Source: a virus
Lineage: Duplodnaviria > Caudoviricetes
Direction: 5' to 3' (one strand)
IMG/VR virus record: IMGVR_UViG_3300044557_000281
Coordinates: 26,156-90,155 of that record
Length of the DNA stretch: 64,000 nt
Of this stretch, positions 9,446-55,735 are shown piece after piece (within the stretch, counting starts at the first letter, position 1; every line of letters begins with the position of its first letter). The position numbers and the translations under genes are program-made. The notes under the pieces were generated by a model. It ran no database searches. It was not told the origin of the DNA and saw only the letters and a program-made list of their open reading frames with translations.

Positions 9446-10676
9446 ATATCACAGGTACGGTCACACTATTGCCAGCTTGTTTATATAGTTGGCTGTTGCT
9501 ATTTACTTCTTGTGCTTTATCAAACGCCCAATCAGGAAAGCCTTGCAATCGCCAGCATTCCCTTGGGGTAAGTTTCCGTATCCGCAATCCGTCATAAATC
9601 CCGTGGCGGTCTTGGGTGTTTAATGTAAACGTTGGATCTCCATTCTCTTTAAATCTTCGCCCATTTTGTCGCTTGTTCATTCTATCTGGTGTAATCACTG
9701 GAACAACTACACCCTGATTCAGACCTGTTTCTAGTGTGTTTGCTCGCTGCTTTCCGACTCTTCCGCGCCTTGTTTTTGAATTAGGTTGGCTAATATTTAC
9801 TGAATCACCAACTTGTGCTTCGGAATATCCTTTTTTCGTAGCTTCACGAATGGTAATCTTAGGTTCACGTCCACCACCGCCCATCGTATTTAATGCAGGA
9901 CTAACGCCAGCTGGATAATAAACTCGACCAGTTTGTGGGTTACCACCAAAAGAATCACTGTCACTAATGTTTCCTACTTGTTTAATAGCAATTTGTTTTG
10001 GTCCTTTATAATCTCTGCTCATTAGAGTAGTTGAAAGACCAGTTGGGTCTAGCACATCCTGACTACCATACGAGCCATCCCTTCTACCGTTGAACAAGCG
10101 AACTATTTCATTTGTTTCACTAGTTGATCTGTTTTCTCTTTCGATAGGAAAAACTTTTCTGGTACGTTTCCCTCTAAGATGCCCAACAATGAAGACACGT
10201 TCTCTGTTTTGAGGCACGACTTCTTTTGAATTGAGAACGTCCCATTCACAGTCATACCCGATTTCATCCAGTTCAATTTGAAGCTTGGCAAAGTCCCATC
10301 CTCCGTTAATACTAAGTAAGTTTTTAACGTTCTCAATGAGTAAGAACTCGGGTCTATTTTCTTCTTCGAGGTCTCTAATAAGTCGCGTAACTGTGAAAAA
10401 CAAACTTGAACGATTACCTGTGAATCCTTTTTGTTTTCCTGCAACACTGATGTCTTGGCAAGGGAACCCGAAGCACCAAATATTGGCTCTTGGGATTTCA
10501 TTTGCTCTAACGTTTGTAATGTCATGTGCTGTCCATTCTCCTTCTGTGTTGTGAATCGCTTTGTAACTGGCTCTTGCGAATTTATCCCATTCAACATAAC
10601 CAACGCACTCGTGACCCGCTTGTTCCATCCCTAAACGGAATCCACCAATGCCGGCGAATAAATCTAAAAACTTCAA
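9414..10676 (-). CDS. DNA cytosine-5 methyltransferase
   Basis: DLFAGIGG, GFPCQ, ENV, QNRERVFIVG, RKLTPREC.RLQGF, AGNSV. Confidence 0.97.
   Translation of the reverse strand: MKFLDLFAGIGGFRLGMEQAGHECVGYVEWDKFARASYKAIHNTEGEWTAHDITNVRANEIPRANIWCFGFPCQDISVAGKQKGFTGNRSSLFFTVTRLIRDLEEENRPEFLLIENVKNLLSINGGWDFAKLQIELDEIGYDCEWDVLNSKEVVPQNRERVFIVGHLRGKRTRKVFPIERENRSTSETNEIVRLFNGRRDGSYGSQDVLDPTGLSTTLMSRDYKGPKQIAIKQVGNISDSDSFGGNPQTGRVYYPAGVSPALNTMGGGGREPKITIREATKKGYSEAQVGDSVNISQPNSKTRRGRVGKQRANTLETGLNQGVVVPVITPDRMNKRQNGRRFKENGDPTFTLNTQDRHGIYDGLRIRKLTPRECWRLQGFPDWAFDKAQEVNSNSQLYKQAGNSVTVPVIYEIAKRFKFN
10103..10603 (-). CDS. Possible out-of-frame ORF nested in the C5-MTase gene
   Basis: 166 open codons, same strand, different frame; ends LLGILEGNVPEKFFLS. 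Confidence 0.4.
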   Translation of the reverse strand: MVMLNGINSQEPVTKRFTTQKENGQHMTLQTLEQMKSQEPIFGASGSLAKTSVLQENKKDSQVIVQVCFSQLRDLLETSKKKIDPSSYSLRTLKTYLVLTEDGTLPSFKLNWMKSGMTVNGTFSIQKKSCLKTENVSSLLGILEGNVPEKFFLSKEKTDQLVKQMK

Positions 10677-19033: not shown

Positions 19034-20429
19034 TTGAACTACCCCACCTTATTTTCAAAGAAAATTGAAGGTGGGGATTCCTAAGAACTAGACTGACTTA
19101 GAGCTATTTTTTATAGCTCCAGAGGTTATCTATATTGATTAGGCTATCCCCGTAGTCCCTACGGTTCTTTTTTTTTTATTTTAATTTAAGGCTTGATTCA
19201 GAATATTTTGTGCGGCATTGATATCTCTATCATGTGTTGTGTTACAAGAAGAGCAAGTCCATGTCCTTACGGACAATGGTTTTTTCCCGTCTATGACTCC
19301 ACAATTTGAACAGACTTGTGAACTTGGATAGAATCTATCTATCACGACAAGCTCTTTATCGTACCAATGACACTTATACTCAAGCATAGAACGAAAAGCA
19401 CCCCAAGATACATTCACAATAGCTTTTGCTAATTTATGGTTTCTCATAAGTCCTTTCACATTTAAGTCTTCAATAGCAATGAAATCATTCTCTTTCACTA
19501 TTTTTGTGCTTAACTTATGAAGAAAGTCCACTCGTTGATTGCGTACCTTTTCATGTAACTTTGCTACTTTTAGTTTTTGTTTTTGATAGTTTTTTGCCTC
19601 TGAAAGAGCTTTACCATCTCTTTTTGCTTGTTCGTATCTACGAGAAAGGATTCTTTGTTCTTTCTTTAACTGTTCTTCGGCTTTTTTGATGAAGTTAGGA
19701 TTATCTATTTTTTGCATATTCTTGTCTGTCGTAATAGCAAAATGAGTTAATCCTAAATCAATACCAATACTTTTGTTAGTCTTTTCCATTGGTTGAATGT
19801 CTTCTTCTGTTAACAACGAGATAAAGAACTTACCACTAGGATTTCTTCTTATGGTTGCAGAGATAATTCTCCCCTTAACTTCACGAGAAAGTGCAACACG
19901 AACAAGCCCTAATTTTGGAAGTTTGACCTTATTCCCCTTTATGGCAATGTTGTTGTTAACAGATTTAGTTGTGTATGATTGTCTTGAATCATGTTTTTTC
20001 TTGAATCGTGGATAATGATTCACTTTTTTGAAAAACATTTGAAATGCCTTATGTAAGTCAAAAACAGCAGTTTGAAGGGCGATTGAATCAACTTCTTTAA
20101 GAAAATCCGTCCCTTTTTTCTCGTTTGTTAAGTTCTTACTCAAGGTTTTCTTACTAGTTTTTACACCCTTTTCATAATCAGCATTCCATTGAGCTAGTGC
20201 TTTGTTATAGACAAAACGAGTGCAACCGAAAGTCTTATTGATTAAGACAGACTGTTCTTTTGTTGGATAGATTCTAAAACTGTAAGCCTTGTATGTCATT
20301 GGACTTTCGACCCCTTTCTTTACTTGTATTATACCACAAAAAGACTAAAAAGTCAACATTGTAGGGGAATTCATCTCCTCCTTAAAATCATTCTGATTTT
20401 TGAAGAAGGAGTCTTCTTCCCTTTTTTAG
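19034..20429 (-). mobile_element. IS1341-like TnpB-only IS200/IS605 element
   Basis: Right end ...GGTGGGGTAGTTCAA ends at 19034 after a hairpin; left-end hairpin near 20365-20410; left boundary approximate (after TTAT). Confidence 0.85.
19181..20299 (-). CDS. tnpB: RNA-guided endonuclease TnpB
   Basis: IGIDLG, IAIEDL, C-x2-C zinc finger, HDRDINAA. Confidence 0.97.
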   Translation of the reverse strand: MTYKAYSFRIYPTKEQSVLINKTFGCTRFVYNKALAQWNADYEKGVKTSKKTLSKNLTNEKKGTDFLKEVDSIALQTAVFDLHKAFQMFFKKVNHYPRFKKKHDSRQSYTTKSVNNNIAIKGNKVKLPKLGLVRVALSREVKGRIISATIRRNPSGKFFISLLTEEDIQPMEKTNKSIGIDLGLTHFAITTDKNMQKIDNPNFIKKAEEQLKKEQRILSRRYEQAKRDGKALSEAKNYQKQKLKVAKLHEKVRNQRVDFLHKLSTKIVKENDFIAIEDLNVKGLMRNHKLAKAIVNVSWGAFRSMLEYKCHWYDKELVVIDRFYPSSQVCSNCGVIDGKKPLSVRTWTCSSCNTTHDRDINAAQNILNQALN

Positions 20430-28565: not shown

Positions 28566-28899
28566 TATAATTTGCCCTCCTTTGGTCTTATTATAACTCT
28601 TGTTTTGATTAAAGTAAAGCCATAATCTTATTATTTTCATTTGTTTCGGTGGACTGTAAGAGATGTCCGTATACTCGTTGTACCATAGAGGTGTCTGTAT
28701 GTCCTAAACGCTTAGCTACCACCTGTAATGAAATTCCTTTGGGTGAACTACTCACCACTTAGCTAAACCTAACGGTTTCTTACGCTTGAAGTGGGAGCTT
28801 CTTGGGAATAGAGCGTACTTGCAAGCGTATTTCTTTGCTCACAGCGGTGTCTCTTATTTACCAAGCTATCCCCGTAGTTCCTACGGTTCTTGATTGTAC

Positions 28900-30051
28900 C
28901 TAAGCTAATGATTGTATTCTTAGACCTTCGGTCAAGATATTGATACTAGCGTTGATGTCTCGGTCGTGTTGAGTATGACAAATAGGGCAAGTCCATTCTC
29001 GAATATCAAGAGATTTCTTACCATCTTTGTGTCCACAATTCGAACAGATTTGGCTAGATGGAAACCACTTATCTACTTTGATGATTTTCCGACCGTACCA
29101 GTCAGCTTTGTATTGTAATTTAGTCACAAAACTAGACCAAGAAACATCCGAAATACTTTTTGCTAGTTTATGATTACGCAACATACCTTTTGTGTTTAAG
29201 TCTTCAATACAGATGATATCGTGATTTTTGATAATTTCTGTACTCAACTTATTCAGAAAATCAGTACGTTGATTCATTACTTTTTCATGCAATCGTGCTA
29301 CTTTTCGTTTTTGCTTTTGGTAGTTTTTAGCTTCGAATAGATTGATACCTTTCTTTTTAGCTAAAAGACCGCGTCTTGACAACTTACATTGTTCACGTTT
29401 TAGTTTCTTTTCCATTTTGGATGTGAATTTATTATTATCAATTTTTTGTCCGTCAGAAAGAATTGCAAAGTCAGTAATACCTAAGTCAATACCAATCGCA
29501 GACTTCATCTTAGGTAATTCGTTAACTTCTTCTTTGCATAACAGAGAAACATAGTATTTACCGCTAGAATGACGTGAGATTGTAGCGGACTTGATAATCC
29601 CTTTAGGCTGTCTATGAAGTTTAATTTTGATTAATGATTTTAATTTAGGAACTTTGATAAGTCTATTATCAATCAAAGAAATTGTTCCATTTTGATTATT
29701 CGTTGTATAACTCTGAACAGGATTTTTCTTACTCTTGAAACGAGGAAATCCAATGGATTTATCCCGAAAGAAATTCTTGTATGCTTTATCTAAATTAAGT
29801 TGTGCATTGGCTAAAGCAAGGCTATCAACTTCCTTCAAAAACGGAAATTCTTTCTTGTATTTAGCAGGTGTCGGAAAAGTCATTGTTTTAGAAGAATCAT
29901 TTTTTACTTCTTCATACGCCTTTATTCGGTCATTAAGCATTAGATTGTAGACCTTACGGATGCAACCAAAAGACTTAGCAAAGAAAATTTCTTGTTCTTC
30001 TGTTGGATATAATCTAAACTTATATGCTTTTAGTCGTTCCATAAGGCTCAC
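28900..30051 (-). CDS. tnpB: RNA-guided endonuclease TnpB
   Basis: IGIDLG, ICIEDL, zinc finger, HDRDINAS. Confidence 0.97.
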   Translation of the reverse strand: MSLMERLKAYKFRLYPTEEQEIFFAKSFGCIRKVYNLMLNDRIKAYEEVKNDSSKTMTFPTPAKYKKEFPFLKEVDSLALANAQLNLDKAYKNFFRDKSIGFPRFKSKKNPVQSYTTNNQNGTISLIDNRLIKVPKLKSLIKIKLHRQPKGIIKSATISRHSSGKYYVSLLCKEEVNELPKMKSAIGIDLGITDFAILSDGQKIDNNKFTSKMEKKLKREQCKLSRRGLLAKKKGINLFEAKNYQKQKRKVARLHEKVMNQRTDFLNKLSTEIIKNHDIICIEDLNTKGMLRNHKLAKSISDVSWSSFVTKLQYKADWYGRKIIKVDKWFPSSQICSNCGHKDGKKSLDIREWTCPICHTQHDRDINASINILTEGLRIQSLA

Positions 30052-30058
30052 CTACTTT

Positions 30059-30463
30059 CTATTTATGATTATTCCCTTGATTCTGAATATATTTCTTTAT
30101 AACGTCAATCGGTGCACCACCAGTAGTCAAAAGACAGAAGCTTTTAGACCAGAACATTTCCTTCCAGAGAAATTGTTTTACTCTTGGAAAGTCACGTTTT
30201 ATCAAACGAGAACTAGCACTTTTATAGGCATTGATGAATTTTGTTAATTCCGTTTTTGGTTGAGCTTTGAACATGATGTGAATATGGTCTTTATCATGAT
30301 TCCACTCAACTAAAGTAATGTGATACGATTTTGAAATTCTTTCAAAAGTATCTTTAGCATAATCAGATATTTCATCATCAATCACTTGTCTACGATACTT
30401 CGTTACTAAAACAAGGTGGTAATAAAGAAGGAATACTGAATGATTATTTGTGTCTAATTCCAT
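30059..30463 (-). CDS. tnpA: IS200/IS605 Y1 transposase
   Basis: YHLVLVTKYRR, DHIH, FWSKSF, YIQNQ. Confidence 0.97.
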   Translation of the reverse strand: MELDTNNHSVFLLYYHLVLVTKYRRQVIDDEISDYAKDTFERISKSYHITLVEWNHDKDHIHIMFKAQPKTELTKFINAYKSASSRLIKRDFPRVKQFLWKEMFWSKSFCLLTTGGAPIDVIKKYIQNQGNNHK

Positions 30464-30732
30464 GTTATATCAACTCATTTCTTATATAGACTGATTATAA
30501 CATAAGATAAAATAAAAAGTCAATATTGCCTTAACTGTCGGTTTTCGAGTTACCAACGGTAACCCTTATACTGAACGGCATTCATCACCCACCTATAGAG
30601 GATGGGCGACTTCTGCCTAATTCTGTTAAAAGGTAGGAAGCATGTGTATGGCGTAATTTATGGAACGCTGACACTCCACACGACTAAAGTCGTGGGGTTC
30701 TTAGGTAGTACACCCTAACAGGTGCAAATTTA

Positions 30733-30945
30733 CTAAGCTATCCCCGAAAGTCCTTCGGTTTTAATATTTACGCTTGTCCAAGATAATATAACGGGGTATA
30801 GAACCCTATATGTGGGTGCTACTACGATAAAAGATTCGTTTATATATAAGAAAGGGTTTGTAGGGTCTATCTCCACACTAGGTAGAGATAGCTTTTCTAC
30901 AAACCTCTTAACATTGCCTGTTAAACTTAAGTAGGCAACTAACAT
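30733..30945 (-). pseudogene. nrdI: Truncated flavodoxin-like NrdI fused to the tnpB 3' end
   Basis: YLSLTGNVKRF...IVVAPTY, then [11 protein letters not shown], identical to the C-terminus of tnpB 52773-53891. Confidence 0.8.
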
Positions 30946-30947
30946 AT

Positions 30948-31178
30948 TTAAACTGCCAACTTAGCAATCAAGTCAGGTCTAAACCCTGAGAATGGCTCTC
31001 CTACAGGAGGGACTACGAAAGGTGCCTCCATAGCACCTTGGTTGACCGCCTCTTCTCTATACTCGTCATTAAGGTCAATATGTCTCTCTTCATACTCTAA
31101 CCCTAATTTTTCTAACTCTTTCTTAGTAAAGGTACATTGTCCGCACCCTGCCTTAGAATATACAATAACTTTACTCAT
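30948..31178 (-). CDS. nrdH: Glutaredoxin-like NrdH
   Basis: YSKAGCGQC, APFV, FSGFRPD. Confidence 0.9.
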   Translation of the reverse strand: MSKVIVYSKAGCGQCTFTKKELEKLGLEYEERHIDLNDEYREEAVNQGAMEAPFVVPPVGEPFSGFRPDLIAKLAV

Positions 31179-31194
31179 TCAAAACCACCCTTAT

Positions 31195-31914
31195 TTAATG
31201 TATTACTTTATATAATCTTTCTGTCCTACCTCTATTTGAATTGTTTATGGATGATACCCCTATAGTCACCTCTTTGCACCAAAACTCCTCAAAAATGTCC
31301 TCAGGCATATCATACTCACTAATAAGCACTGTGTTATTCTCTGCCATTTGTACACACCACTCATAAAATTCATTATGAGAAAATGTGTCCCGATAACCTA
31401 AGGTACTTTTATAGGGAGGGTCACAATAAATAACGGCACCCGATACTGTTTTAGGGTCATAGTCCTTATACGAGCCTAACCCAAATTTTATACCCTTTAA
31501 GTTAGGAGCTTGGTTAATAATATTACGTATACCTTCACTAGACATGTCACGTTTACCCTTTCTGTCTCTAGCAAACCCGCCAAAGTATTTAGCCCCAAAT
31601 GTAGCACAAAAACCTACTAAGCCAACGTACCAATCAGGGTAGCTATTCTTATTATCCCTAACATTGATATACTCGTCCTCAGTTATCGTACTAGGTAAGT
31701 TACTAATATTGTCCTCGTCTTGGACATAAACAAGTAGTGCAATAAGTTTCTCATGAACATCCGTCCCTATCTTAACTGGACTCTTAATCTTATCAATCAT
31801 ATTAGCCCCTCCAACGAAGGGCTCTATGTACATTGTAGTATCCTCCGTTATATATGATTGAATTATTGGTGCTATTTGTTTACTCAGCCTGTTTTTACTT
31901 CCTACGTATTTCAT
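31195..31914 (-). CDS. Dam-like (D12 class) adenine methyltransferase
   Basis: KYVGSK, IEPFVGG, YCDPPY, LISEY. Confidence 0.9.
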   Translation of the reverse strand: MKYVGSKNRLSKQIAPIIQSYITEDTTMYIEPFVGGANMIDKIKSPVKIGTDVHEKLIALLVYVQDEDNISNLPSTITEDEYINVRDNKNSYPDWYVGLVGFCATFGAKYFGGFARDRKGKRDMSSEGIRNIINQAPNLKGIKFGLGSYKDYDPKTVSGAVIYCDPPYKSTLGYRDTFSHNEFYEWCVQMAENNTVLISEYDMPEDIFEEFWCKEVTIGVSSINNSNRGRTERLYKVIH

Positions 31915-31924
31915 GTTAAACCTC

Positions 31925-32890
31925 CTAGATAAAGTCGTCTGAAAATACTTTGTCCACTAACTCTGTTAAGTAGTTTAAAGTTATTTCACCGTCATTTTCT
32001 TCTAACCACTCATTATAAGCGGAAAGGAACCACAGCATGTAGGTTGTGTCCACTCCGATTAATTGCTCCCTTAAAACGTCAGGGTTTTTCAAATCTAACT
32101 CTTGTAGCTGAAATACCATTTTAAGAATCTGACCTGCGTTAACAGAGAACCCTCTTTGAATAAACTTACGCATACGGAATAGAGAACATAGTGGAAACTT
32201 AGAACCTGTGTATACTAGCTCATGAGTCATCATAGACACAAGGGCTTCCTTAGGTAAACCTAATTCTTTTTCTTTAGGGTCATACCAACAAGTACAATGA
32301 ACGAAATCAAAGTTCTCATGTATTTGTTCAGGAGAACCAACAAACCTCAATATAAGCTGTACTTTACCTGTTAAACTAATTGCGTTGTCTGTAAAATACA
32401 CTGGTTTGTGTCTAGTTTCCTCAGTGTCCTCCACATTAGTATCTTCATCAGTTGTAGGTTTCAAGTCCTCATTTTTAAGTAACTCAGTATCTTGTGCCAC
32501 ACCTGACGATTTTATAAATACTTTTATCGGGTCAGTTGCTCCTTTAAATTTATGTGCGTCTGCCACATCAATATCTACACTCTCGCCTTCTCCTCCATAT
32601 CCCTCTACGGAGGACGTTGTAATATCAGCATACTGTAGTTTAACTGATTCTTTGTTTTTCTTTTTATTAAACATTTTAGCATAGTAATCTGCGACTATAA
32701 TAGCTGAGTACGTGTCCCTAAAGTATATATCTAGGTCGTTCAAATCACCTACCATAAGTAAGCTAGCAACAGCACCTCCTGTTACGAATGTGCCGTCTTT
32801 AGCTACTTTTCTTACTTCTTCGTCTGTTATAGATTCTAGCCATGCTTTGTGTTTTCTACCTATAATGCTTTTTACAGTTTTAGTTTTCAT
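31925..32890 (-). CDS. Nucleotidyltransferase-superfamily protein
   Basis: TGGAVAS...DLDIYF motif; own TTGACA promoter. Confidence 0.65.
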   Translation of the reverse strand: MKTKTVKSIIGRKHKAWLESITDEEVRKVAKDGTFVTGGAVASLLMVGDLNDLDIYFRDTYSAIIVADYYAKMFNKKKNKESVKLQYADITTSSVEGYGGEGESVDIDVADAHKFKGATDPIKVFIKSSGVAQDTELLKNEDLKPTTDEDTNVEDTEETRHKPVYFTDNAISLTGKVQLILRFVGSPEQIHENFDFVHCTCWYDPKEKELGLPKEALVSMMTHELVYTGSKFPLCSLFRMRKFIQRGFSVNAGQILKMVFQLQELDLKNPDVLREQLIGVDTTYMLWFLSAYNEWLEENDGEITLNYLTELVDKVFSDDFI

Positions 32891-32952
32891 AATTATCTCC
32901 TTTTATCATATTTTAATTAATAATACCATAAAAGAGATAATTTGTCAACTAA

Positions 32953-33032
32953 TTACTTTATATGTTTAACTCTAGCGTCAATCTCTTTTTTACGACCATA
33001 CGCATTAGGTCTAGCTTGTGGTTGTCCTAAAT
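32953..33032 (-). pseudogene. nrdD: Orphan 3' exon of anaerobic ribonucleotide reductase
   Basis: (Y)LGQPQARPNAYGRKKEIDARVKHIK matches the NrdD C-terminus at the glycyl-radical CGYLG motif; no 5' exon in the window. Confidence 0.75.
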
Positions 33033-34271
33033 CCTTTATACCCTCGGTTTCCCGATATTTATTAGGGGCATAGACTATACAATCACCTAAACGGTGGCTA
33101 TATTATAGTCGTTGAACGTTATCTATGGTTAACTTTTTATATTTTTCATATTTACGGTCTAGATACACAGTAGCATTCCTGTACAGTATAGTTAACGCCA
33201 TTCTAGCGTTGTTACCTCCTAGAGAGATATAGAAAATACCTTTAGCCCTGTATAACTGACTTTTAGACTTTGGTGCAATTATCGGCTTAACCACTGACAA
33301 GAGTTGTTCAGTACCTAGCATAGAAAACCTAACTCCTGATTTGCTGTTGTATACTGAACCATCTCCATCGAAGTAACCTCTAATAAAGTGGTTAACTAGA
33401 TTATCGTCTAGTTTAGGAAACTTTAGTGTTTTACTTTTGTTGGGTGTTAGCCCCTTGTCTAGTAAGTCATTATACATTTTTCTACTAGTAATGTTTAGTA
33501 CACAATACTTGTAGTCTTCACCGCTGTATGAGCTACTATTGCTAGTATACACATGAATAGGGATGTTACTGCTTAAACTTGAGTTTAATTTGTGTAAGTG
33601 GTCTATATCCTTTACAGATAACTTCACGCCTATAACTTTCCCGTTAGTAACGTACCCATCAGCCATGAGAAAACCTAACCAGTAAGCTTTATGCTCTGTG
33701 TTTATAACCTCAAAGTAGTCGTCATCCCAAGTATAAACCTTACCATTAGACTCTACCCCTCTAATAGAAATGTTATTCTCTAGTAGCACTCTCTTTATTA
33801 CAGATGTGCTTACTGAAAACTTACTGGCTATTGCTTGTTGACTACTTCCTGCATTGTAACTTGTTAGTATAATTTCTATATCTTTATCCGTAAATATTTT
33901 CTTTTTTACCACATGTGTACCTCCTATAAGTTAGTTATACTTATAATATAGCACAATGGAGTTTAACTGAGCCATAAATCTTCGATGCGGATTTCCCATT
34001 TATCCACCCTTAGCACCTTTGTGACAAGGCTTTTATTTCAGCTTAGGTAATCTAACTAATTTTTTCTGCTTTCGCAACGTTCACGCTCACCGTTTCCAGT
34101 CACGTTGTAATTTAGTTAGCTTTACGTATTTCCAGCAATTCAGTTTCTTCATTGGGCAATATGAGTTTTTGTATTGCCTCTAAATGCAAGTTTCCCTACA
34201 TTCTTACAGTACGTCTACGGGCTATCATCCACACGGTTTTAACCGTGTGGGTTTTCTCGCCCGCAAATTCT
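33033..34271 (-). ncRNA. Chimeric group I intron containing a homing endonuclease
   Basis: Core P 34129-34140, Q 33985-33994, R 33106-33117, S 33072-33083. Confidence 0.85.
33103..33912 (-). CDS. Double-motif LAGLIDADG homing endonuclease
   Basis: YWLGFLMADGYV and FIRGYFDGDGSV; ORF runs into intron P7; GGAGG RBS. Confidence 0.93.
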   Translation of the reverse strand: MVKKKIFTDKDIEIILTSYNAGSSQQAIASKFSVSTSVIKRVLLENNISIRGVESNGKVYTWDDDYFEVINTEHKAYWLGFLMADGYVTNGKVIGVKLSVKDIDHLHKLNSSLSSNIPIHVYTSNSSSYSGEDYKYCVLNITSRKMYNDLLDKGLTPNKSKTLKFPKLDDNLVNHFIRGYFDGDGSVYNSKSGVRFSMLGTEQLLSVVKPIIAPKSKSQLYRAKGIFYISLGGNNARMALTILYRNATVYLDRKYEKYKKLTIDNVQRL

Positions 34272-35196
34272 ATAAGTGGTCTGGTACACCGCAAGCGGTT
34301 AAGACTCTTCTTAAAGTTTCGTTCACTGTAGAATTAACTGGGTTACGGTCTGTGGCTACAAAGTAAGGGGCATGTGGTTGAATTGTGTCATAGATGCTTC
34401 GCCACTGCTCAAATTTAGCTAAGAGAGTTAACCAATCTTGGTCAATTACAATCGTTCGTACACTAGATAAGTTCTTGGTTGGGGCATAATCTTTGGTATA
34501 TTTATAATCCCAAGTCTTATCAATTCGGATTGTATTATTGTTGATTGAATCCTGATTTAGTCCTAGAATTTCAGATAAACGAGCACCAGTCTTTAGGGCT
34601 GTGTAAATAGGGAACATATAATACTGGATAGCGGTTTCTCTAGCCCTCGGTTTCCCTTGGGTATTAAAAGAAACTGGTTCCTTGGTTAAGAATGTGTTTA
34701 ACCATGCTTCTGTATAAGAGACCACTCTAGTGTACTCATCTACCTCTAACTATTTCTTGGCATTTCGCTCATTAGACAGTTCTAAGATAGTCATTTGGTC
34801 GTCCTTACTGGTTAGAGTGATACGTTTATAAGGGCTTACTGGGATATAATTATCAATTACTGCGTCCGATAAGCATGATTTTATGTAGTTACTTTCTGTT
34901 TTTACTGTTCGTTTACGGTGGGTTAGCCCGTAGTCTTGCATATACTGCTGAATATCTTTACGAGTAATTTTAGTGAGTTGTAGTTGCCCTAGATTAGATT
35001 TAGCTAATCGGTCTCCTGTAATCGTGTATTTTTCTAAGGTTGCTAATCCTACATTAGGTTTCTTGTATAAGTTTACCCACTCGTTATACCACTCTGTCAT
35101 TTTCATGTTATTTATTCTCTCCTTCTTTGTTTTAAGTACAAGCGTAGTATAACAGTATTTATTAGTGTTGTCAATACTAATGTTAGAGTAAAATAA

Positions 35197-35222
35197 AATG
35201 ATTAGTTGTGTGAACTAATCAT
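35197..35222 (-). terminator. Intrinsic terminator just outside the invertible cassette
   Basis: ATGATTAGTT-loop-AACTAATCAT followed by a T-rich tail on the minus strand. Confidence 0.7.
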
Positions 35223-35258
35223 TCTATTCTTCATGCTATTTAAACAACAAATTTCGTT

Positions 35259-35723
35259 GTTGTAAAACGAGAGGAACTAACGGGAACTGATGTACAGCAA
35301 CGTGTGGAAACGACTATTTACGTAAGAAATAGAATCATTGCTAAATCAATTGTTAAAAACACTTATATTAATCCGGCAAACGGAAATGAAGATTACCAAG
35401 AGGGGAATGCTGTATTCACTACAGCACCCATCGCAATTGCCGTCAAAGAAGTTTCGATAGCAAAATATGAAAAAACTACATATGGAAACATTGCTATGAG
35501 TTTTTATAAAGCTATTCCACCGTCTGGTTTTGTGAATACTCTTGTTGTTACCACAGATGGAGAAACCAAGGAATCTATGTCGTTTACAATTGATGAGAGT
35601 ATTAATTATATCCGCTTTAGTCCTGATGCAAATAACGGCGACTATAATTTTAAATTCAAACTAGTATCTGGAACTGAAATAGGCGGAAGAACACTAGCTC
35701 CAGAGGACATCTTAGCTAGCTAG
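35259..35723 (+). CDS. Silent alternative C-terminus (variant B) of the 35712-36317 protein
   Basis: Open from the repeat (VVKREELTG...YVRNR...TLAPEDILAS); no RBS before the GTG at 35304. Confidence 0.75.
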   Translation, partial: VVKREELTGTDVQQRVETTIYVRNRIIAKSIVKNTYINPANGNEDYQEGNAVFTTAPIAIAVKEVSIAKYEKTTYGNIAMSFYKAIPPSGFVNTLVVTTDGETKESMSFTIDESINYIRFSPDANNGDYNFKFKLVSGTEIGGRTLAPEDILAS

Positions 35724-36200
35724 TATACTTTCAGCTGGAATGGTCCAAATGTATGAATCTTCCGAACTACCTTTTCTTAAAGAAAGCTTGCGTGCCTGAC
35801 AGATAACTGGTAGATTGCCATCATTTTGGGTAATCATGACCAGACCGAGGGTCGTAGAATTTTCGGTTGTCAGTACTGTCGCGGTTGTGATACCCTTGCT
35901 TCCATTTTTCACTTCTTGATTGCTTCCCCAATCTGCAACTGTGCCATCAGAAAGATGGGACTGTAATTGTACACTTAAAGGCAATGTGTTAGAAGGCGCG
36001 GTATTATCAATTTCTATGCTTGCCGTATAATTTTCGTTAGATTGAACATTGAGTAGTTCAATCTCCCCATTGTTCCAACCAGTAAATTTATATTCAACCC
36101 ATTTTGAGGTACTAAGTAAACTAGTTAAATTGCGACTATACACCACTACCCCCTCACGCTCAACGGCACCACTAGTAGCTACAACATCTCGTTTTACAAC
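35259..36200. other. Putative invertible cassette bounded by 14-bp inverted repeats
   Basis: GTTGTAAAACGAGA at 35259-35272 (+) and its reverse complement at 36187-36200. Confidence 0.8.
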
Positions 36201-36317
36201 GTCTAACGGTTTCACTGTTAACGCGCCTGTATCGTCCTTCACACATTGGAACCACACATAGTCAGAGGCGGTGTCTGTTGGTTGCACTTTATATAAATGT
36301 CCTTCGATTAATTTCAT
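35712..36317 (-). CDS. Putative virion protein with carbohydrate-binding-module-like domain (variant A)
   Basis: YSRNL...KLSLRKG...WTIPAE resembles the RNL...KLExG..W.PAPED pattern of Firmicutes phage tail CBMs. Confidence 0.7.
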   Translation of the reverse strand: MKLIEGHLYKVQPTDTASDYVWFQCVKDDTGALTVKPLDVVKRDVVATSGAVEREGVVVYSRNLTSLLSTSKWVEYKFTGWNNGEIELLNVQSNENYTASIEIDNTAPSNTLPLSVQLQSHLSDGTVADWGSNQEVKNGSKGITTATVLTTENSTTLGLVMITQNDGNLPVICQARKLSLRKGSSEDSYIWTIPAESILAS

Positions 36318-37243
36318 GCGGTTACTCCTTTTACCATAGTAAGAAAGTCAGTTTGAGATAACGAGTGAACAACACTATCCGTATCACTTGCCACACCGTC
36401 CACTGTTATATTAAGACTTTGTTTACTAATGATTTCTGTATTTTCATAAATGTCTTTTGGTGCATAAGTAAAAGTAATTAAGTCTGTAGTAGCCCCTTTA
36501 ATCACTTTGTGTTTGTTGCTATATTTTCCACTATCTGCGTCCATAGTCACAATAAGACTAGCTGTTCTATCGGGGGCAGTGAAGCTGAAGTTCCCTCCGG
36601 CTACTGTGGTTGTATTTTTATCTTGTTTTAACATGGTGCCACCGTCACCATACCATGTGAAGCTCACATTGCCCGTCCCAGCCGGTAGAATGCAACTATA
36701 GACCATCCCACTACTGGCTTTAATAGAACCGGTTACAAAGGAAGCTGTGGCGTCTACGATAGCGCCTGTAGCGTCCACACTCTTTAACGGTGTCACACCA
36801 CCGGTCACAATTAAGTTTTTACTGTACACGGTTTTACCGTCACTGGATTGGATTAAATCTACTGGTGTCACTTGTCCGTACACACTTACATAATACACAA
36901 ACTTACTAACGGTATCTGCCGGTTGTACAGCATACAATAAACCGTCTGTAGCAAAGAAGCTATCGGCATTGTTTATGTGGGTCATAAAGTCGGTCTGACT
37001 AATGGAAATAGTCTCATACTTCCCATTGCTTACTACACCGTCTACTGTAATGAAATAATCAGTCAGTATAGGTAAAGCAGTAAATCCCGGTACGTATTGT
37101 TTTAAGCCGTCACTCGTTCGTTTAACATAGTAACTATTAGGTGGTACAACTTGCCTACTCAATAAACCAGAAATTACTAGTGAAGTTTTATCCCCACTAG
37201 TAATTAGTTTATTGGCAGAATCGTATAATTCGTATTTAGCCAA
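36314..37243 (-). CDS. Putative virion accessory protein
   Basis: 309 aa, beta-rich; two ITVDG..SQTDF motifs. Confidence 0.75.
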   Translation of the reverse strand: MAKYELYDSANKLITSGDKTSLVISGLLSRQVVPPNSYYVKRTSDGLKQYVPGFTALPILTDYFITVDGVVSNGKYETISISQTDFMTHINNADSFFATDGLLYAVQPADTVSKFVYYVSVYGQVTPVDLIQSSDGKTVYSKNLIVTGGVTPLKSVDATGAIVDATASFVTGSIKASSGMVYSCILPAGTGNVSFTWYGDGGTMLKQDKNTTTVAGGNFSFTAPDRTASLIVTMDADSGKYSNKHKVIKGATTDLITFTYAPKDIYENTEIISKQSLNITVDGVASDTDSVVHSLSQTDFLTMVKGVTA

Positions 37244-37261: not shown

Positions 37262-37729
37262 TCATTCTATTGGAAATATATCGTTATAAGCCGGTGTCCA
37301 TACTATAGTGGCTGAATCATCACCAGTAGTTGGGATATACAGCTTATAACCTGATTGTGGGTCTAATTCTGGTAAGGTAATCTTGCCGTTAGTGTCAGTC
37401 ATAATTGTTCCGATTAACTCTTGTCGTTGCTCATACTGCCCATATGAATCCTCATCAGTCGGTGCCACTACTTCATAAGAGTAATAACGGACTAAATCAT
37501 AATTCGTATCAGCCAGTAGAACATCTGGCGTACCTGATTTAGGTAGCCAGTTTCTACGATAGTTGTTAACCTCCCCTGTCTCTAATACAAGATTTATCTT
37601 TTTAATGGGTTTATCGTCCACAAGCAATAAATCGTCTACGTCATAAATGTAAGGGAGTGAGTGCAAACCTTGCGCTTTATATATGTTATAGTTGGTTAGA
37701 TTGCATGGCTGAATTGTGTATTTTGTCAT
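37262..37729 (-). CDS. Putative virion accessory protein
   Basis: 155 aa in the Ig-protein operon. Confidence 0.7.
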   Translation of the reverse strand: MTKYTIQPCNLTNYNIYKAQGLHSLPYIYDVDDLLLVDDKPIKKINLVLETGEVNNYRRNWLPKSGTPDVLLADTNYDLVRYYSYEVVAPTDEDSYGQYEQRQELIGTIMTDTNGKITLPELDPQSGYKLYIPTTGDDSATIVWTPAYNDIFPIE

Positions 37730-37864
37730 ACTTCTAAACCGTTCCCTTCACTTGCTACTGTCGTATCAACCATTGCTAAAAAGTCTGCTTGTGAAACTGT
37801 CTCTACGTCATAGTCCCCTGTTTCTACTACACCATCTCTAGTAATTGTAAGGGGTTGCTTAGGG
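37726..37864 (-). other. Candidate +1 frameshift site CCC-TAA and 44-aa extension
   Basis: The +1 frame is open from 37860 to the TGA at 37728-37726. Confidence 0.7.
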
Positions 37865-38515
37865 TGCTGTAACTGTTACTGCACATACGGCTGTTTTAGC
37901 TCCGTCAGTTGTAGTTACCGTTACATTAGCTGTACCAGCCGCTACCCCTGTGATAGTTCCATCAGTACCTACTGTTGCAATTTTTTCATCACTAGACTTG
38001 AATGTCATAGCTTTATTGGTTGCATTCGTTGGTGCGATTGTTGCTGTTGCTTTTACTTTAGCGCCTACGTTTACAGAAGCAGTGGCTTTGTCTAAGGTTA
38101 CACCTGTTACCGTAATGACTACAGCTACTTTATCACCATCTACTAAAATTTCTTGTACACATACGTTATAAGCCGGGAAGCTGAACTCGTCATAAGCAAA
38201 TTCTTTAAAGGCACGTAACGCTACATTTGTTGCGTCACTGTCTGCCGTTGGTGTGAATGTTTCAATTTTAGCTGGATTGTAACGGTCAATGTTCGTATTG
38301 AAAATAGCGTGAACTTTATCTGCTTCAATCAAAATGACTGGTGAACCGTCCGCCCCATCTTCTACAATTTGTTTTACTCCGTCTACGTCTTTCACGCTAA
38401 ACGTGTGTTGATTAAAGATACCAGAATAACCGTCTCGTATCGTTTTTACTACAATGTTACCGGCAATGCCAAAGCCGGCTGTGTTAATTGCCTTATCAAT
38501 TTCTGTATATCCCAT
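37859..38515 (-). CDS. Ig-like (Big_2) domain virion protein
   Basis: VTGVTLDK..ASVNVG...ATIAPTNATNK...SSDEKIATV. Confidence 0.9.
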   Translation of the reverse strand: MGYTEIDKAINTAGFGIAGNIVVKTIRDGYSGIFNQHTFSVKDVDGVKQIVEDGADGSPVILIEADKVHAIFNTNIDRYNPAKIETFTPTADSDATNVALRAFKEFAYDEFSFPAYNVCVQEILVDGDKVAVVITVTGVTLDKATASVNVGAKVKATATIAPTNATNKAMTFKSSDEKIATVGTDGTITGVAAGTANVTVTTTDGAKTAVCAVTVTAP

Positions 38516-51918: not shown

Positions 51919-54900
51919 CTAATTTAACAATCTAATTAGTTCTCCTGTACCATCTGCTTTCACGGAATGTTCATGAATGACTTTCCATGCTAATTCTTTC
52001 CCTAAGTCGTTAGCGTCCTTCTTATAAGGGTTAATGACCATATAGGTATTTTTATGATAGGGCTTAATCCGTTCAGCTAACCAGTAAATTTTATCTTTAG
52101 CGTCTTCATCTAGCATAATATAAATCTTCTGGTCTTCTGTTAGGTCTTCTGTAATGAGTTGTATCTGTTCATCTGTAATCTGCTTCCCAAATGTTCCTAC
52201 ACCCGATATACCTAATGTAAGTGCGTCTGGTACGCCTTCTGTAATCACAAGTTCTTTACAACGCTTTGCACGATTTAGATTAAACACCGCTGTGCCTTTT
52301 GAATACTCATGGTCTTTGGCTGGTGCATTTACCGATTTTACAAAGGAATCTCCAATTGCTCGTGTGTTCCAATAAATCACTTGCCCTAAATCATTATGAG
52401 TTAGAAACACCACATGGTTTTTTAGAGTGAGTGTTTTATGGCTAGGGGTTTCTATCTTAGAATAGGTAATGTACCCAATGTTATGGACTATGATGTCTTC
52501 TGTGGTAAACCCTCGTTTATTTAAGTATTGCAGGAACGGGATAATTTCTGGGTTCGTCCAGTTATCTGCAATCCTTTTAAATCCCGGTGGAAGTAACGGA
52601 CAAGTGAGTTGCTCGTGTACTGCTTCAGTGACTTTCTTTATATCGTTCATATGAGAAATCAGCATGAGTAGCTGTTCTTCTGGACTTAATGACGTATCGA
52701 CTTTATCCTGACACTCCACACGACTAAAGTCGTGGGGTTCTTAGGTAATACATCCTAACGGACGTAAATTTACTAAGCTATCCCCGAAAGTCCTTCGGTT
52801 TTAATATTTATGCTTGCATTAATATCTCTATCATGAGTTGTTCCACAATTTGAACATATCCATTCACGAATATTTAGTTCTTTTTTACCGTCATTATGAC
52901 CGCAAACAGAACAGATTTGTGAACTAGGATAGAATCGGTCTACTTTAACTAAAGTGCGACCTTTCCATGCACATTTATAGCCCAGTTGTCGAACGAATTC
53001 ACTCCAAGATACATCTGCTATTGACTTCGCTAATTTATGATTTTTAACCAACCCTTTTACATTCAAATCTTCAATACAAATGATTTGGTTCTCATCAGTA
53101 AGTCGTGAAGATAGTTTATGTAAAAAATCAGTACGTTGGTTTGAAATTTTCTCATGGATACGCGCAACTTTAACTTTCTGTTTTTGATAGTTGCGACACT
53201 CATCTAATTTTCGATTGTGTTTTTTCGCAACTTCCAAACGCTTGGAAAGTTTTCGTTGTTCGCGTATTAACCGTTGTTCAAGAGAGCGATAGAATCGGTT
53301 ATTATCGATCTTTTCTCCTGCGGATGTGATACAGAAATGAGTTAAGCCTAAATCTAATCCAATGTTATTTGCTACGGGTTCTTCTATGAAATTTTCAGTA
53401 TCAACTAAAAACGTTGCAAAATATTTCCCTGATTTGCTTTGACTAATCGTTACGTTCATTAGTTTTCCTTTAAAACGCAATTCTTCTGCCATTTTGACCC
53501 AACCGACTTTCGAAACATAGAAGTATCGACCATTGACTTTCATGCCTACGGCAGTTCGATAGGATTTCTTCGAGTGTTTTTTACTCTTAAATTTAGGAAA
53601 GCCAAAATTAGATTTGAATGTATTCTTATATGCCTTGTTTAAATCCATATTCACTTGACTAAGAGGTTGTGCTTCAACTTCTTTTAGCCAAGAAAACTCT
53701 TCTTGCTTCTTAAGTCCAGCATAGGTTAGTTTATTTTCAATATATTCAGGATTTTCTTTTTTCATCTTATAATTCGTAATTCTCTGGTCTAGTAAAAAAT
53801 TCCAGTAGAATCGAACGCAACCAAAGGTTTTTTGAAATTGAATTTCCTGTCTTGAATTCGGATAGATTCTAATTTTATGAGCTTTTTTCATTTCTGTACA
53901 CCTCCTTAACGTAAACTCAGTATCTTGTTCTTTGATTTTCTACATATTGTTTTATAGTTTCGCTAGAAACGTTTCCTGCTGTTGAAACAAAGTAAGACCG
54001 TGTCCAAACACTTGGCATTTTGCTCAAGTGCTCAAACGATTGTCGTAACTCTCTTGATGTTTTTCCTTTAATCACCTTCATGACATCTGCCGGCGAATAG
54101 ATTGGTTGAACATTTACAAAAAGATGACAATGGTCTTTATCTGTTTCTATTGCAATGATTTCCCATTCATTTTCTTTACAGATTGAATGGACAAGAGTCT
54201 TAAAACTAGCGTCTACTTCGGAATTGACAAATATTTTCCGACGATATCTAGGACAAAAAACAAAATGATAGTTGAGTAACGATACAGTTGTCTTAGTATG
54301 TCTGTACTCGTTATCCATGAGTTAATTATACATTAATTAGTGTACGAAGTAAATATTTTTATACACAAATAGTAAAACTTTTTTGACTTTATCGTGTGGA
54401 GTTTGTTCACATAGGTTCGCTATTTCCTATGCAGTTCTCTTATGAACTTCTTACGCTTTCACGCAAGCACAGACTATATCTTATCCGTTGGCTTTACCCA
54501 GTACGGCGAAACCACTTCGAGTCGCTTGACCCTACTTCCCTCAAGAGGAATAGTCGTTGAACCTTCCTATTTCTAAGCTTGGCTGCTGATTTCCGATTGT
54601 GTAACACTTAGGATTTAACCTTATGCCATCTGATTGATTTATTCTGCTTTCGCCACCGTCACGCTTGAGTTTGGTTATCTCTACGTTGTGGTTCAACCAG
54701 CTTTACGGATTTCCAGCAATTCAGTTTCTTCATTGGGCAATATGAGTTTTTGTATTGCCTCTAAATGCAAGTTTCCCTACATTCTTACAGTACGTCTACG
54801 GGCTATCATCCACACGGTTAAAACCGTGGGTTTTCTCGCCCGCAAATTCTATAAATGGAATCATCTATGGAATAATCGTAAACGGCTAAAATGTCTTTAG

Positions 54901-55120
54901 CTTGGTTAAAACCTACTCCTAAGAATTTCATTACAAAGGAAATAGGGTTGCCTTTCATACCACACTTAAAGCATATCCACAAGCCATCTTTATCACTGCC
55001 GTTATTTTTTACATAAAATTTATAATCGGTATTAGAGCCGCAGAAAGGGCAACAGTATCTCAACTCGTGCCCTATATCTTTTGGCATACCTAAATGTTCT
55101 GTTAAGTAATCACTAAACAA
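51919..55120 (-). CDS. DNA primase; exons 55120-54851 and 52707-51919 (352 aa spliced)
   Basis: CPFC...CFKC zinc finger; [14 protein letters not shown] and LDED; in-frame join DSIY|DKVD. Confidence 0.93.
52773..53891 (-). CDS. tnpB: RNA-guided endonuclease TnpB
   Basis: IGLDLG, ICIEDL, zinc finger, HDRDINAS. Confidence 0.97.
53917..54318 (-). CDS. tnpA: IS200/IS605 Y1 transposase
   Basis: [30 protein letters not shown]. Confidence 0.97.
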
Positions 55121-55126
55121 GTGAAC

Positions 55127-55735
55127 TCACCCTTCCAAAAACAATTTACGTTTAATGCTAAGGAATGTATATAGCTCCCCGATTGCTCGGTACATATTGT
55201 CTTCCCCTTCTGTACACTGGGCGTAAGCTCGGTGTAATTGTGAATCTTTTGTTAAGGAACCGAACCAACCTAACTCCCTTAGTTTTAAGCTTTTCATGTA
55301 ACGGTCTACTACAATCGAATTTAAGCCGTCTAGTTGCTCACCTAAGAGCTTGTAGTTATTGGCAATCTCATTAGCTGTAATCGTTCCTAAAACGCTGTGT
55401 AGCCCCAAATCATTAGCTAATTTAAGTATTCCTCTGTTTTGAGTGGCTACTTCTTTAATGTACATGACTTTTGTAGTGGTGCTTGCGTGGTGAGAGATAG
55501 CACGGTCTGTGGCATTATCTATGCCATAAGAAGGTTTCTCCTTAATCGTTACTGTACAAGGGGCAATGTAGACCCGTTCTCTTGATTTATTGTAGTTCAC
55601 TTTATAACGTCCATCTAGTGGGTACCAATTGTATATGTTGTCCTTTACAAAAACCAATTCATTTGCTACTTCTTGTTTTGTAAAGAATTGTATTAGACCT
55701 CTGCCGCCTAATACTTTTAATTTTGTGTTACTCAT
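55127..55735 (-). CDS. Conserved hypothetical protein
   Basis: 202 aa between SbcC and primase. Confidence 0.75.
   Translation of the reverse strand: MSNTKLKVLGGRGLIQFFTKQEVANELVFVKDNIYNWYPLDGRYKVNYNKSRERVYIAPCTVTIKEKPSYGIDNATDRAISHHASTTTKVMYIKEVATQNRGILKLANDLGLHSVLGTITANEIANNYKLLGEQLDGLNSIVVDRYMKSLKLRELGWFGSLTKDSQLHRAYAQCTEGEDNMYRAIGELYTFLSIKRKLFLEG

Follow-up and report, generated by a model that had tools for sequence, protein, structure and literature searches.

We analysed a 64-kb window of phage DNA (bases 26156-90155 of the 90-kb IMG/VR record IMGVR_UViG_3300044557_000281, which is ~60% complete), within which a candidate inversion cassette lies beside a tyrosine recombinase gene. Gene A (35712-36317, minus strand, 201 amino acids (aa)) consists of a constant N-terminal part and a C-terminal cassette, and a second, startless cassette, B, meets it tail to tail on the opposite strand. 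The pair is enclosed by two inverted copies of a 14-nucleotide (nt) repeat, GTTGTAAAACGAGA. The features of the cassette were as follows, with positions numbered from the first base of the window.

36201-36317, minus strand: constant N-terminal 39 codons of the expressed gene, a predicted three-stranded β domain with the end P-L-D.
36187-36200, minus strand: right copy of the 14-nt repeat GTTGTAAAACGAGA, codons 40-44 (VVKRD) of gene A.
35712-36186, minus strand: C-terminal cassette of variant A, in the expression site, a predicted β-sandwich resembling a carbohydrate-binding module (CBM).
35712-35723, both strands: tail-to-tail overlap of the two frames, 12 nt, a near-palindrome, TTAGCTAGCTAG, that is identical in a second phage (contig L003, see below).
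35259-35723, plus strand: silent cassette of variant B, 154 codons and a stop codon, without a start codon, ribosome-binding site (RBS) or promoter.
35259-35272, plus strand: left copy of the 14-nt repeat, the first codons (VVKRE) of cassette B.
35228-35192, minus strand: terminator-like hairpin of 18 bp followed by a U-tract (z = -5.5), outside the repeat.

The two copies of the repeat were 100% complementary, and no further copy was found in the window (allowing up to 2 mismatches) or in the whole 90-kb record (allowing up to 1 mismatch). The right copy began at base 1 of codon 40 of gene A. The frame of cassette B was open from 35244 to 35723 on the plus strand, with the left copy five codons past a TAA, and the earliest possible start codon in this frame (ATG, GTG, or TTG) was a GTG at 35304 that has no Shine-Dalgarno sequence. 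Inversion of the 942-bp segment between the repeats (35259-36200) would join the 39 constant codons in frame to the 154 codons of B, giving a protein of 193 aa. The hairpin was not called by a pattern scan because its stem is AT-rich. An initial annotation of this DNA had claimed the repeat pair and its positions, the exact start of the right copy at codon 40, a plus-strand frame without an RBS headed by the left copy, an in-frame product of 193 aa in place of 201 aa, divergent but colinear variants, a palindrome where the two frames meet, and a terminator beyond the repeat. All of these points held on re-examination, and the anatomy of a constant N-terminal and a variable C-terminal part that it had described fits an inversion cassette.

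A and B aligned colinearly with 25% amino-acid and 38% nucleotide identity. The probability of an identical run of at least 14 bases at homologous positions of A and B was P ~3.5e-4, the onset of A-B homology at the repeat was abrupt, and the two cassettes had just the 5′ repeat and, at the 3′ end, the 12-nt overlap in common. It is the position of the 14-mer, not its presence, that is the unusual feature. A dyad-symmetric core site around the 14-mer was considered and set aside; a weak 7-7-7 dyad was present at the left copy and none at the right, which was uninformative.

The same A and B cassettes were found tail to tail in a different phage (contig L003; Logan, SRR8925771), the upstream genes of which differ from those of the window and the N-domain of which is ~50% identical to that of the window at the protein level. 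The A/B core of 820 nt (window 36168-35349) was ~99% identical between the two phages, compared with ~55% nucleotide identity in the flanks and the N-domain. L003 was without the 14-mer and instead carried an 18-nt inverted repeat, TGCCGTTGATCGTGAGGG, which A and B share in a common reading frame and which begins right after the P-I-D end of the N-domain. The window holds a single unpaired copy of this 18-mer. No A/B similarity was detected upstream of the 18-nt repeat in L003, and there was no trace of a second N-domain upstream of the repeat in either phage. By this comparison, the 820-nt core has clearly been transferred from one diverged phage to another, the breakpoints falling inside conserved motif regions, and a 99%-identical pair in otherwise diverged phages documents that receptor-binding modules were exchanged horizontally very recently.

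The repeat-proximal 20-30 codons of B have diverged between the two phages, yet they remain open and keep the motif I-Y-V-R-N. Such a diverged yet open start with its motif suggests that B is translated in some configuration, which would need fusion to an N-terminal part. The frame of B is maintained in two lineages, and a startless B is kept inverted behind A in two diverged phages, each of which has its own perfect in-frame repeat at the same domain boundary.

A and B were compared with domain, structure, and phage collections. Neither had a Pfam match. A single-sequence AlphaFold2 (AF2) model of A (predicted local distance difference test (pLDDT) 48) showed residues 5-38 as three strands and residues 85-200, beyond a linker, as a β-sandwich at low confidence, a layout that would place the repeat just past the N-domain. 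The ESM Atlas model of A (pLDDT 0.65) was nearest to viral proteins bearing CBM_4_9 domains, with template modelling (TM) scores of 0.53-0.63, and comparison of the A model with the PDB returned generic lectin/CBM/TNF-like β-sandwiches alone (Z up to 6.3). The N-domain of A was homologous to residues 100-130 of a 309-aa protein encoded immediately upstream (E 6e-7) and to the N-region of the protein P0005 (hhalign E 2.3e-5), and B was homologous to the C-terminal domain of P0005. P0005, which thus combines an N-domain with a B-type domain, is encoded with a BppU_N baseplate protein on one side and a GDPD enzyme on the other. Its C-terminal domain matches the ‘tail fiber protein’ of Streptococcus phage Javan220, in which a B-type domain is thus also present. 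Another relative, P0027, is a BppU_N fusion, and a third, P0002, sits behind a phrog_1330 tail protein. The architecture of P0005 and P0027 shows that an N-domain followed by a B-type domain is a natural full-length protein. The BppU_N and P0005-like genes are separate in L004 2272-3626 (216 and 221 aa) and fused into a 451-aa open reading frame (ORF) in L014 2272-3627, both of one phage type; no meaningful inverted repeats were found near the family member in L014, close to which an integrase is encoded. The genomic context of these relatives, in baseplate and tail modules with one fused to BppU_N, supports the identification of A as a probable virion tail/baseplate protein with a glycan-binding-type head, in line with the virion protein proposed at the outset. 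The cassette domains may bind cell-wall glycans. Nucleotide and protein searches of INPHARED phages with A, B, and the 309-aa neighbour gave no match, and related-locus searches with A, B, and the B-family alignment in IMG/VR, GTDB genomes, and JGI metagenomes gave no relatives.

The gene next to the cassette had been annotated as a tyrosine recombinase, which was borne out: an XerD-like gene starts at 35106, 150 bp from the left repeat. Its parts and the elements that separate them were as follows.

35174-35146, minus strand: recombinase promoter, TTGACA-17-TATACT, 11/12 matches with an extended -10 TG, a near-consensus promoter of the sigma-70 type.
34272-35106, minus strand: recombinase piece 1, a SAM-like domain and the greater part of the catalytic domain, interrupted by an in-frame TAG at 34750-34752.
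30668-34271, minus strand: IStron-derived insertion of 3.6 kb with group-I-intron-like 5′ and 3′ ends.
30626-30667, minus strand: recombinase piece 2 with the HKLRHT motif, located by tblastn.
28743-30625, minus strand: insertion of the IS200/IS605 family, tnpA at 30059-30463 and tnpB at 28900-30051.
28609-28742, minus strand: recombinase piece 3 with LGH...YGH, the catalytic Tyr, and the stop codon, located by tblastn (E down to 9e-16 against homologues).

With the TAG read through, piece 1 encodes 278 aa with 38% identity to tyrosine recombinases of ~340 aa. The TAG is at codon 119 (TGG>TAG), where it replaces the invariant Trp of K-K-W-L-E, and the same TAG was present in L013, an independent Logan contig. 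A tblastn search located the missing C-terminal parts at distances of 3.6 and 5.5 kb downstream. PF14659 scored above its cut-off, and PF00589 (Phage_integrase) scored below cut-off on the fragments. The reading frame is therefore broken three ways, by the TAG, by the 3.6-kb IStron-derived insertion, and by the 1.9-kb IS200/IS605 insertion, which is more than had been claimed when the recombinase was first described as broken. Recoding or suppression of the TAG was rejected, as table 11 leaves the other genes uninterrupted and the 90-kb record contains no suppressor tRNA. Read as encoded, the recombinase is a predicted non-functional protein. All of its catalytic residues are retained (piece 1 has the R and K regions, piece 2 has HKLRHT, and piece 3 has LGH and YGH), so the inactivation looks recent. 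No serine invertase and no second site-specific tyrosine recombinase were found in the 90-kb record. By its adjacency to the cassette and by analogy with known systems, the neighbouring recombinase is the most likely candidate for the invertase.

The reading that we favour is a recombinase-driven inversion switch, operating now or until recently, with the neighbouring gene as the invertase; we regard it as an even call. The product of gene A would be a small tail/baseplate-associated protein made of a constant anchoring N-domain of 39 aa and a replaceable β-sandwich C-domain, and B would be a second, very different C-terminal domain stored silent on the opposite strand. Recombination between the 14-nt repeats would flip the segment and join B in frame to the constant part, while the promoter and the terminator would be common to both states. 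The XerD-like recombinase, expressed from its own promoter, would act as the invertase. The nonsense codon and the two insertions inactivate it in this genome, and with the recombinase inactivated the switch would be frozen with A expressed. We infer that inversion occurs or occurred, and likewise which enzyme acts.

Several observations weigh against this reading. No inverted allele was found in the three assemblies available (the IMG/VR record, L013, and L003), all of which have A in the expression site. L013 (SRR16378546) was 100% identical to the window over 35100-36330 in the same orientation, and its contig passes unbranched through both repeats. A search of 5.8 billion clusters for proteins of 84-270 aa returned no N-domain fused to this B, and the search for B-type proteins in this size range returned the window's own ORF cluster alone; an exact junction probe gave 0 matches in three collections. 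The proposal to look for relatives in the opposite orientation thus yielded one orientation, with very thin sampling of three assemblies. As a bare inverted repeat, the 14-mer is not significant: the window contains 3 perfect 14-nt inverted repeats within 2 kb, and ~0.95 are expected. Although the cassettes of the two phages share 99% identity, their repeats have unrelated sequences, an odd combination if a dedicated site-specific enzyme is at work. In the contigs inspected, the recombinase homologues occupied early/replication modules beside methylases and were never next to tail cassettes, and the closest relatives of the enzyme in phage databases are integrases with ~33% identity; the adjacency of the recombinase to the cassette could be coincidental. 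On the protein side, hhalign of the A and B families detected similarity in the N-domain and the RNL region only, and not in the C-terminal domain. The AF2 model of B was unusable (pLDDT 35), and the carbohydrate-binding character suggested in the initial annotation has weak structural support in A, as a lectin/CBM-like β-sandwich. The tyrosine-recombinase tropism switch that had been proposed, in a locked state, is partly supported, by its cassette anatomy and its dead recombinase, and does not gain from the single orientation seen, from the integrase-like relatives of the enzyme, or from the differing repeats of the two phages.

It is rather unlikely that no programmed inversion is involved and that the locus holds a relic or a donor cassette. 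In the relic version, which we consider unlikely, B would be a 3′ remnant stranded from a formerly convergent paralogue, or a module that illegitimate recombination left behind, and the repeats would be a residue of ancestry or gene conversion. The lack of a flipped allele, the commonness of 14-nt inverted repeats, and the persistence of a phage with a dead recombinase agree with such an origin, as does the natural tendency of phage tail genes to recombine at the boundaries of modules. The run of identity between A and B is, however, unlikely by descent at the P value given above, and an in-frame repeat occurs independently at the same boundary in L003. B also keeps its 154-codon frame and the family motifs in two lineages in which the repeat-proximal parts have diverged, and neither phage has a trace of a second N-domain upstream of the repeat.

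A switch may also be real with its invertase elsewhere, the adjacent gene being a decaying integrase or Xer-like gene and the enzyme being supplied in trans by the host or by an unsequenced part of the phage; this we judge quite unlikely. The positions and relatives of the recombinase homologues are in its favour, as are the differing crossover repeats of phages with near-identical cassettes and the incompleteness of the record (~60% complete). Bifidophages, moreover, have a second inversion locus that lacks a recombinase (PMC6109161). Against it, the recombinase lies 150 bp from the left repeat with a strong promoter of its own, in an order like that of the Rin shufflon described below, and no other recombinase was found in the record. 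Finally, B could be a silent donor that serves homologous recombination or gene conversion, either inside one genome or among phages that infect the same cell, with no reversible inversion; this is improbable. The phage does encode a UvsX-like recombinase, and the A/B core did move between diverged phages with breakpoints in conserved motif regions, but 14-18 nt is very short for exchange of the RecA/UvsX type, and an inverted donor needs homology on both sides to replace A by simple conversion, for which A and B offer no more than the 5′ repeat and the 12 nt of overlap at the 3′ end.

With regard to the source of the cassette, the DNA polymerase of the phage was 49% identical to its counterpart in Enterococcus Herelleviridae. 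It is reasonable on this basis to regard the phage as a large, Herelleviridae-like one, and the earlier label ‘SPO1-like’ is apt at the family level. The window also encodes a phage sigma factor and the UvsX-like recombinase and contains several group I introns. All ORFs of at least 150 aa in the 64-kb window (51/51) are on the minus strand, and cassette B is the sole plus-strand coding region. The phage has tRNA genes for Thr-tgt, Ile-tat, and Arg-tct (L017 9772-10094, record bases 9772-10094). The other two perfect 14-nt inverted pairs of the window are at 53115/55004, which brackets the left part of an IStron in the primase gene, and at 39/392.

Downstream of the holin gene, a co-oriented cluster encodes a Big_2 protein (37859-38515), a 155-aa protein, the 309-aa protein, and gene A. 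The gene next to gene A was located as follows.

36314-37243, minus strand: 309-aa paralogue upstream of gene A, translationally coupled to it through an ATGA overlap.

Gene A and the 309-aa protein both match phrog_37836, and the latter has an N-domain-like module followed by a ‘YSKNL’ start. The Big_2 gene ends in ...GCA CCC TAA, and its +1 frame is open for 44 more codons (window 37726-37875, minus strand); this extension lacks its own start codon and overlaps the following gene through an ATGA at its end. The CCC_UAA at the end of the Big_2 gene resembles the +1 frameshift sites known in Listeria phage structural genes. The extension has a module ‘I-T-x-D-G-V ... S-Q-x-D-F’, which occurs twice in the 309-aa protein. 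A family of direct repeats of ~38 nt (36372-36409, 37014-37051, and 37808-37845) encodes a small repeated module found in the Big_2 extension and in the middle and at the end of the 309-aa protein, where the C-terminus of one protein comes just ahead of the next N-terminus. The cluster looks like a chain of tandem duplicated units with the gene borders inside the unit.

The ends of the IStron-derived insertion in the recombinase gene were 85% and 94% identical to those of the primase-gene IStron (~52.7-54.9 kb), and the insertion has the same TTAT target and ...TCAG terminus, with joints at 34271/30668. An Rfam scan of 32800-34500 detected no intact intron in the insertion; its left end is described as intron-like because of the 85% identity to the primase intron, which Rfam does call. 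The primase gene itself (51919-55735) is split by a complete IStron, an Rfam group I intron at 54450-54788 with tnpA and tnpB, and the ends of this IStron are the closest match to those of the element that disrupts the recombinase. Two candidate exons of the recombinase were rejected: 33102-32956 (49 codons after the LAGLIDADG gene) as a 3′ exon, by tblastn and the alignment of the ends, and ‘CGV’ at 30680 as an exon start, by the true joints. The cargo of the insertion comprises the LAGLIDADG gene (33103-33912), ORF321, a Dam-type methylase gene, an NrdH-like gene, and a truncated NrdI-like ORF. The NrdI-like ORF (30733-30945) is truncated after ~45 conserved residues, where the right end of the IStron begins, and the 3.6 kb of cargo enclosed by the IStron ends resembles phage genome sequence that has been rearranged. 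In the IS200/IS605 insertion, the TnpB protein matched the Pfam families OrfB_IS605, Cas12f1-like_TNB, and HTH_OrfB_IS605. A segment at 19116-19169 was 82% identical to the right end of this element (the omega-RNA-like region), which suggests a further TnpB-family element near 17.9-20.3 kb.

Switching of host range by DNA inversion is textbook knowledge for the phages Mu and P1, in which serine invertases act. In the G segment of Mu (Gin), the C segment of P1 (Cin), and the Min system of p15B, the serine invertases work with a Fis-dependent enhancer and use sites of 26-34 bp, and each segment carries a second gene (U/U′). The two-state Mu G and P1 C segments and the multi-state Min system resemble the present locus in that alternative 3′ parts can follow a constant 5′ tail-fibre part, with inverted repeats located within the coding sequence and an invertase encoded next to the segment; the present locus differs in its tyrosine recombinase, its 14-nt repeat, and its single-domain cassettes. 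In the shufflon of R64, the tyrosine recombinase Rci swaps C-terminal segments of the adhesin-like PilV at short asymmetric sites, which is a further likeness, whereas that system belongs to a plasmid conjugation pilus, has seven sfx sites, and acts on unrelated proteins. To our knowledge, host-range inversion by a tyrosine recombinase has been reported in a single case, that of bifidobacterial prophages.

This case is the Rin shufflon of Bifidobacterium breve and Bifidobacterium longum prophages (Mavrich et al. 2018), reported to be the first tyrosine invertase encoded by a phage (PMC6109161). As at the present locus, a constant part of a receptor-binding protein and variable cassettes are followed by a tyrosine recombinase without an arm-binding domain, the crossover repeats are very short (11 bp in Rin and 14 bp here), and the target is a tail receptor-binding module in a phage of Gram-positive hosts (PMC6109161). 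Rin differs in having several cassettes in temperate siphophages of Actinobacteria, compared with two cassettes in a Herelleviridae-like phage of Firmicutes, and its alternative orientations were observed between genomes and in virion DNA, whereas a single orientation and a disrupted recombinase were found here (PMC6109161). The 14-mer is unrelated to the published 11-bp rix (PMC6109161), and the two systems are likened by layout. A more specific form of the inversion switch can be put forward tentatively, as a possibility somewhat short of even: a Rin-like switch of glycan-binding domains in virulent-type Herelleviridae-like phages of Firmicutes, in which the pair would travel between unrelated phages, be re-anchored by different crossover sequences, and have been frozen here by the IStron and IS605 elements.

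Surveys of gene-altering inversions found tail fibre genes among the main or enriched targets (Milman et al. 2023, PMC9881135). The loci of these surveys and intragenic invertons share with the present one a full gene beside a startless inverted partial paralogue, repeats, and a nearby recombinase (PMC9881135; Chanin et al., bioRxiv 10.1101/2023.03.11.532203). They are located in bacterial chromosomes and prophages and were validated with long reads, whereas the present locus is on a free-phage metagenomic contig and is known from its sequence. If validated, the locus would be a second phage tyrosine-invertase system and a natural example of mobile introns and insertion sequence elements locking a phase-variable trait, and it would mean that lytic-type SPO1-like phages, which are candidates for therapy, can carry hidden alternative receptor-binding domains. 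A tyrosine-recombinase tropism switch is less new than the initial annotation implied, as Rin was described in 2018. By analogy of layout, the Rin shufflon is the closest precedent, and the present locus would be a two-cassette case of this known type of inversion switch in a Herelleviridae-like phage of Firmicutes.

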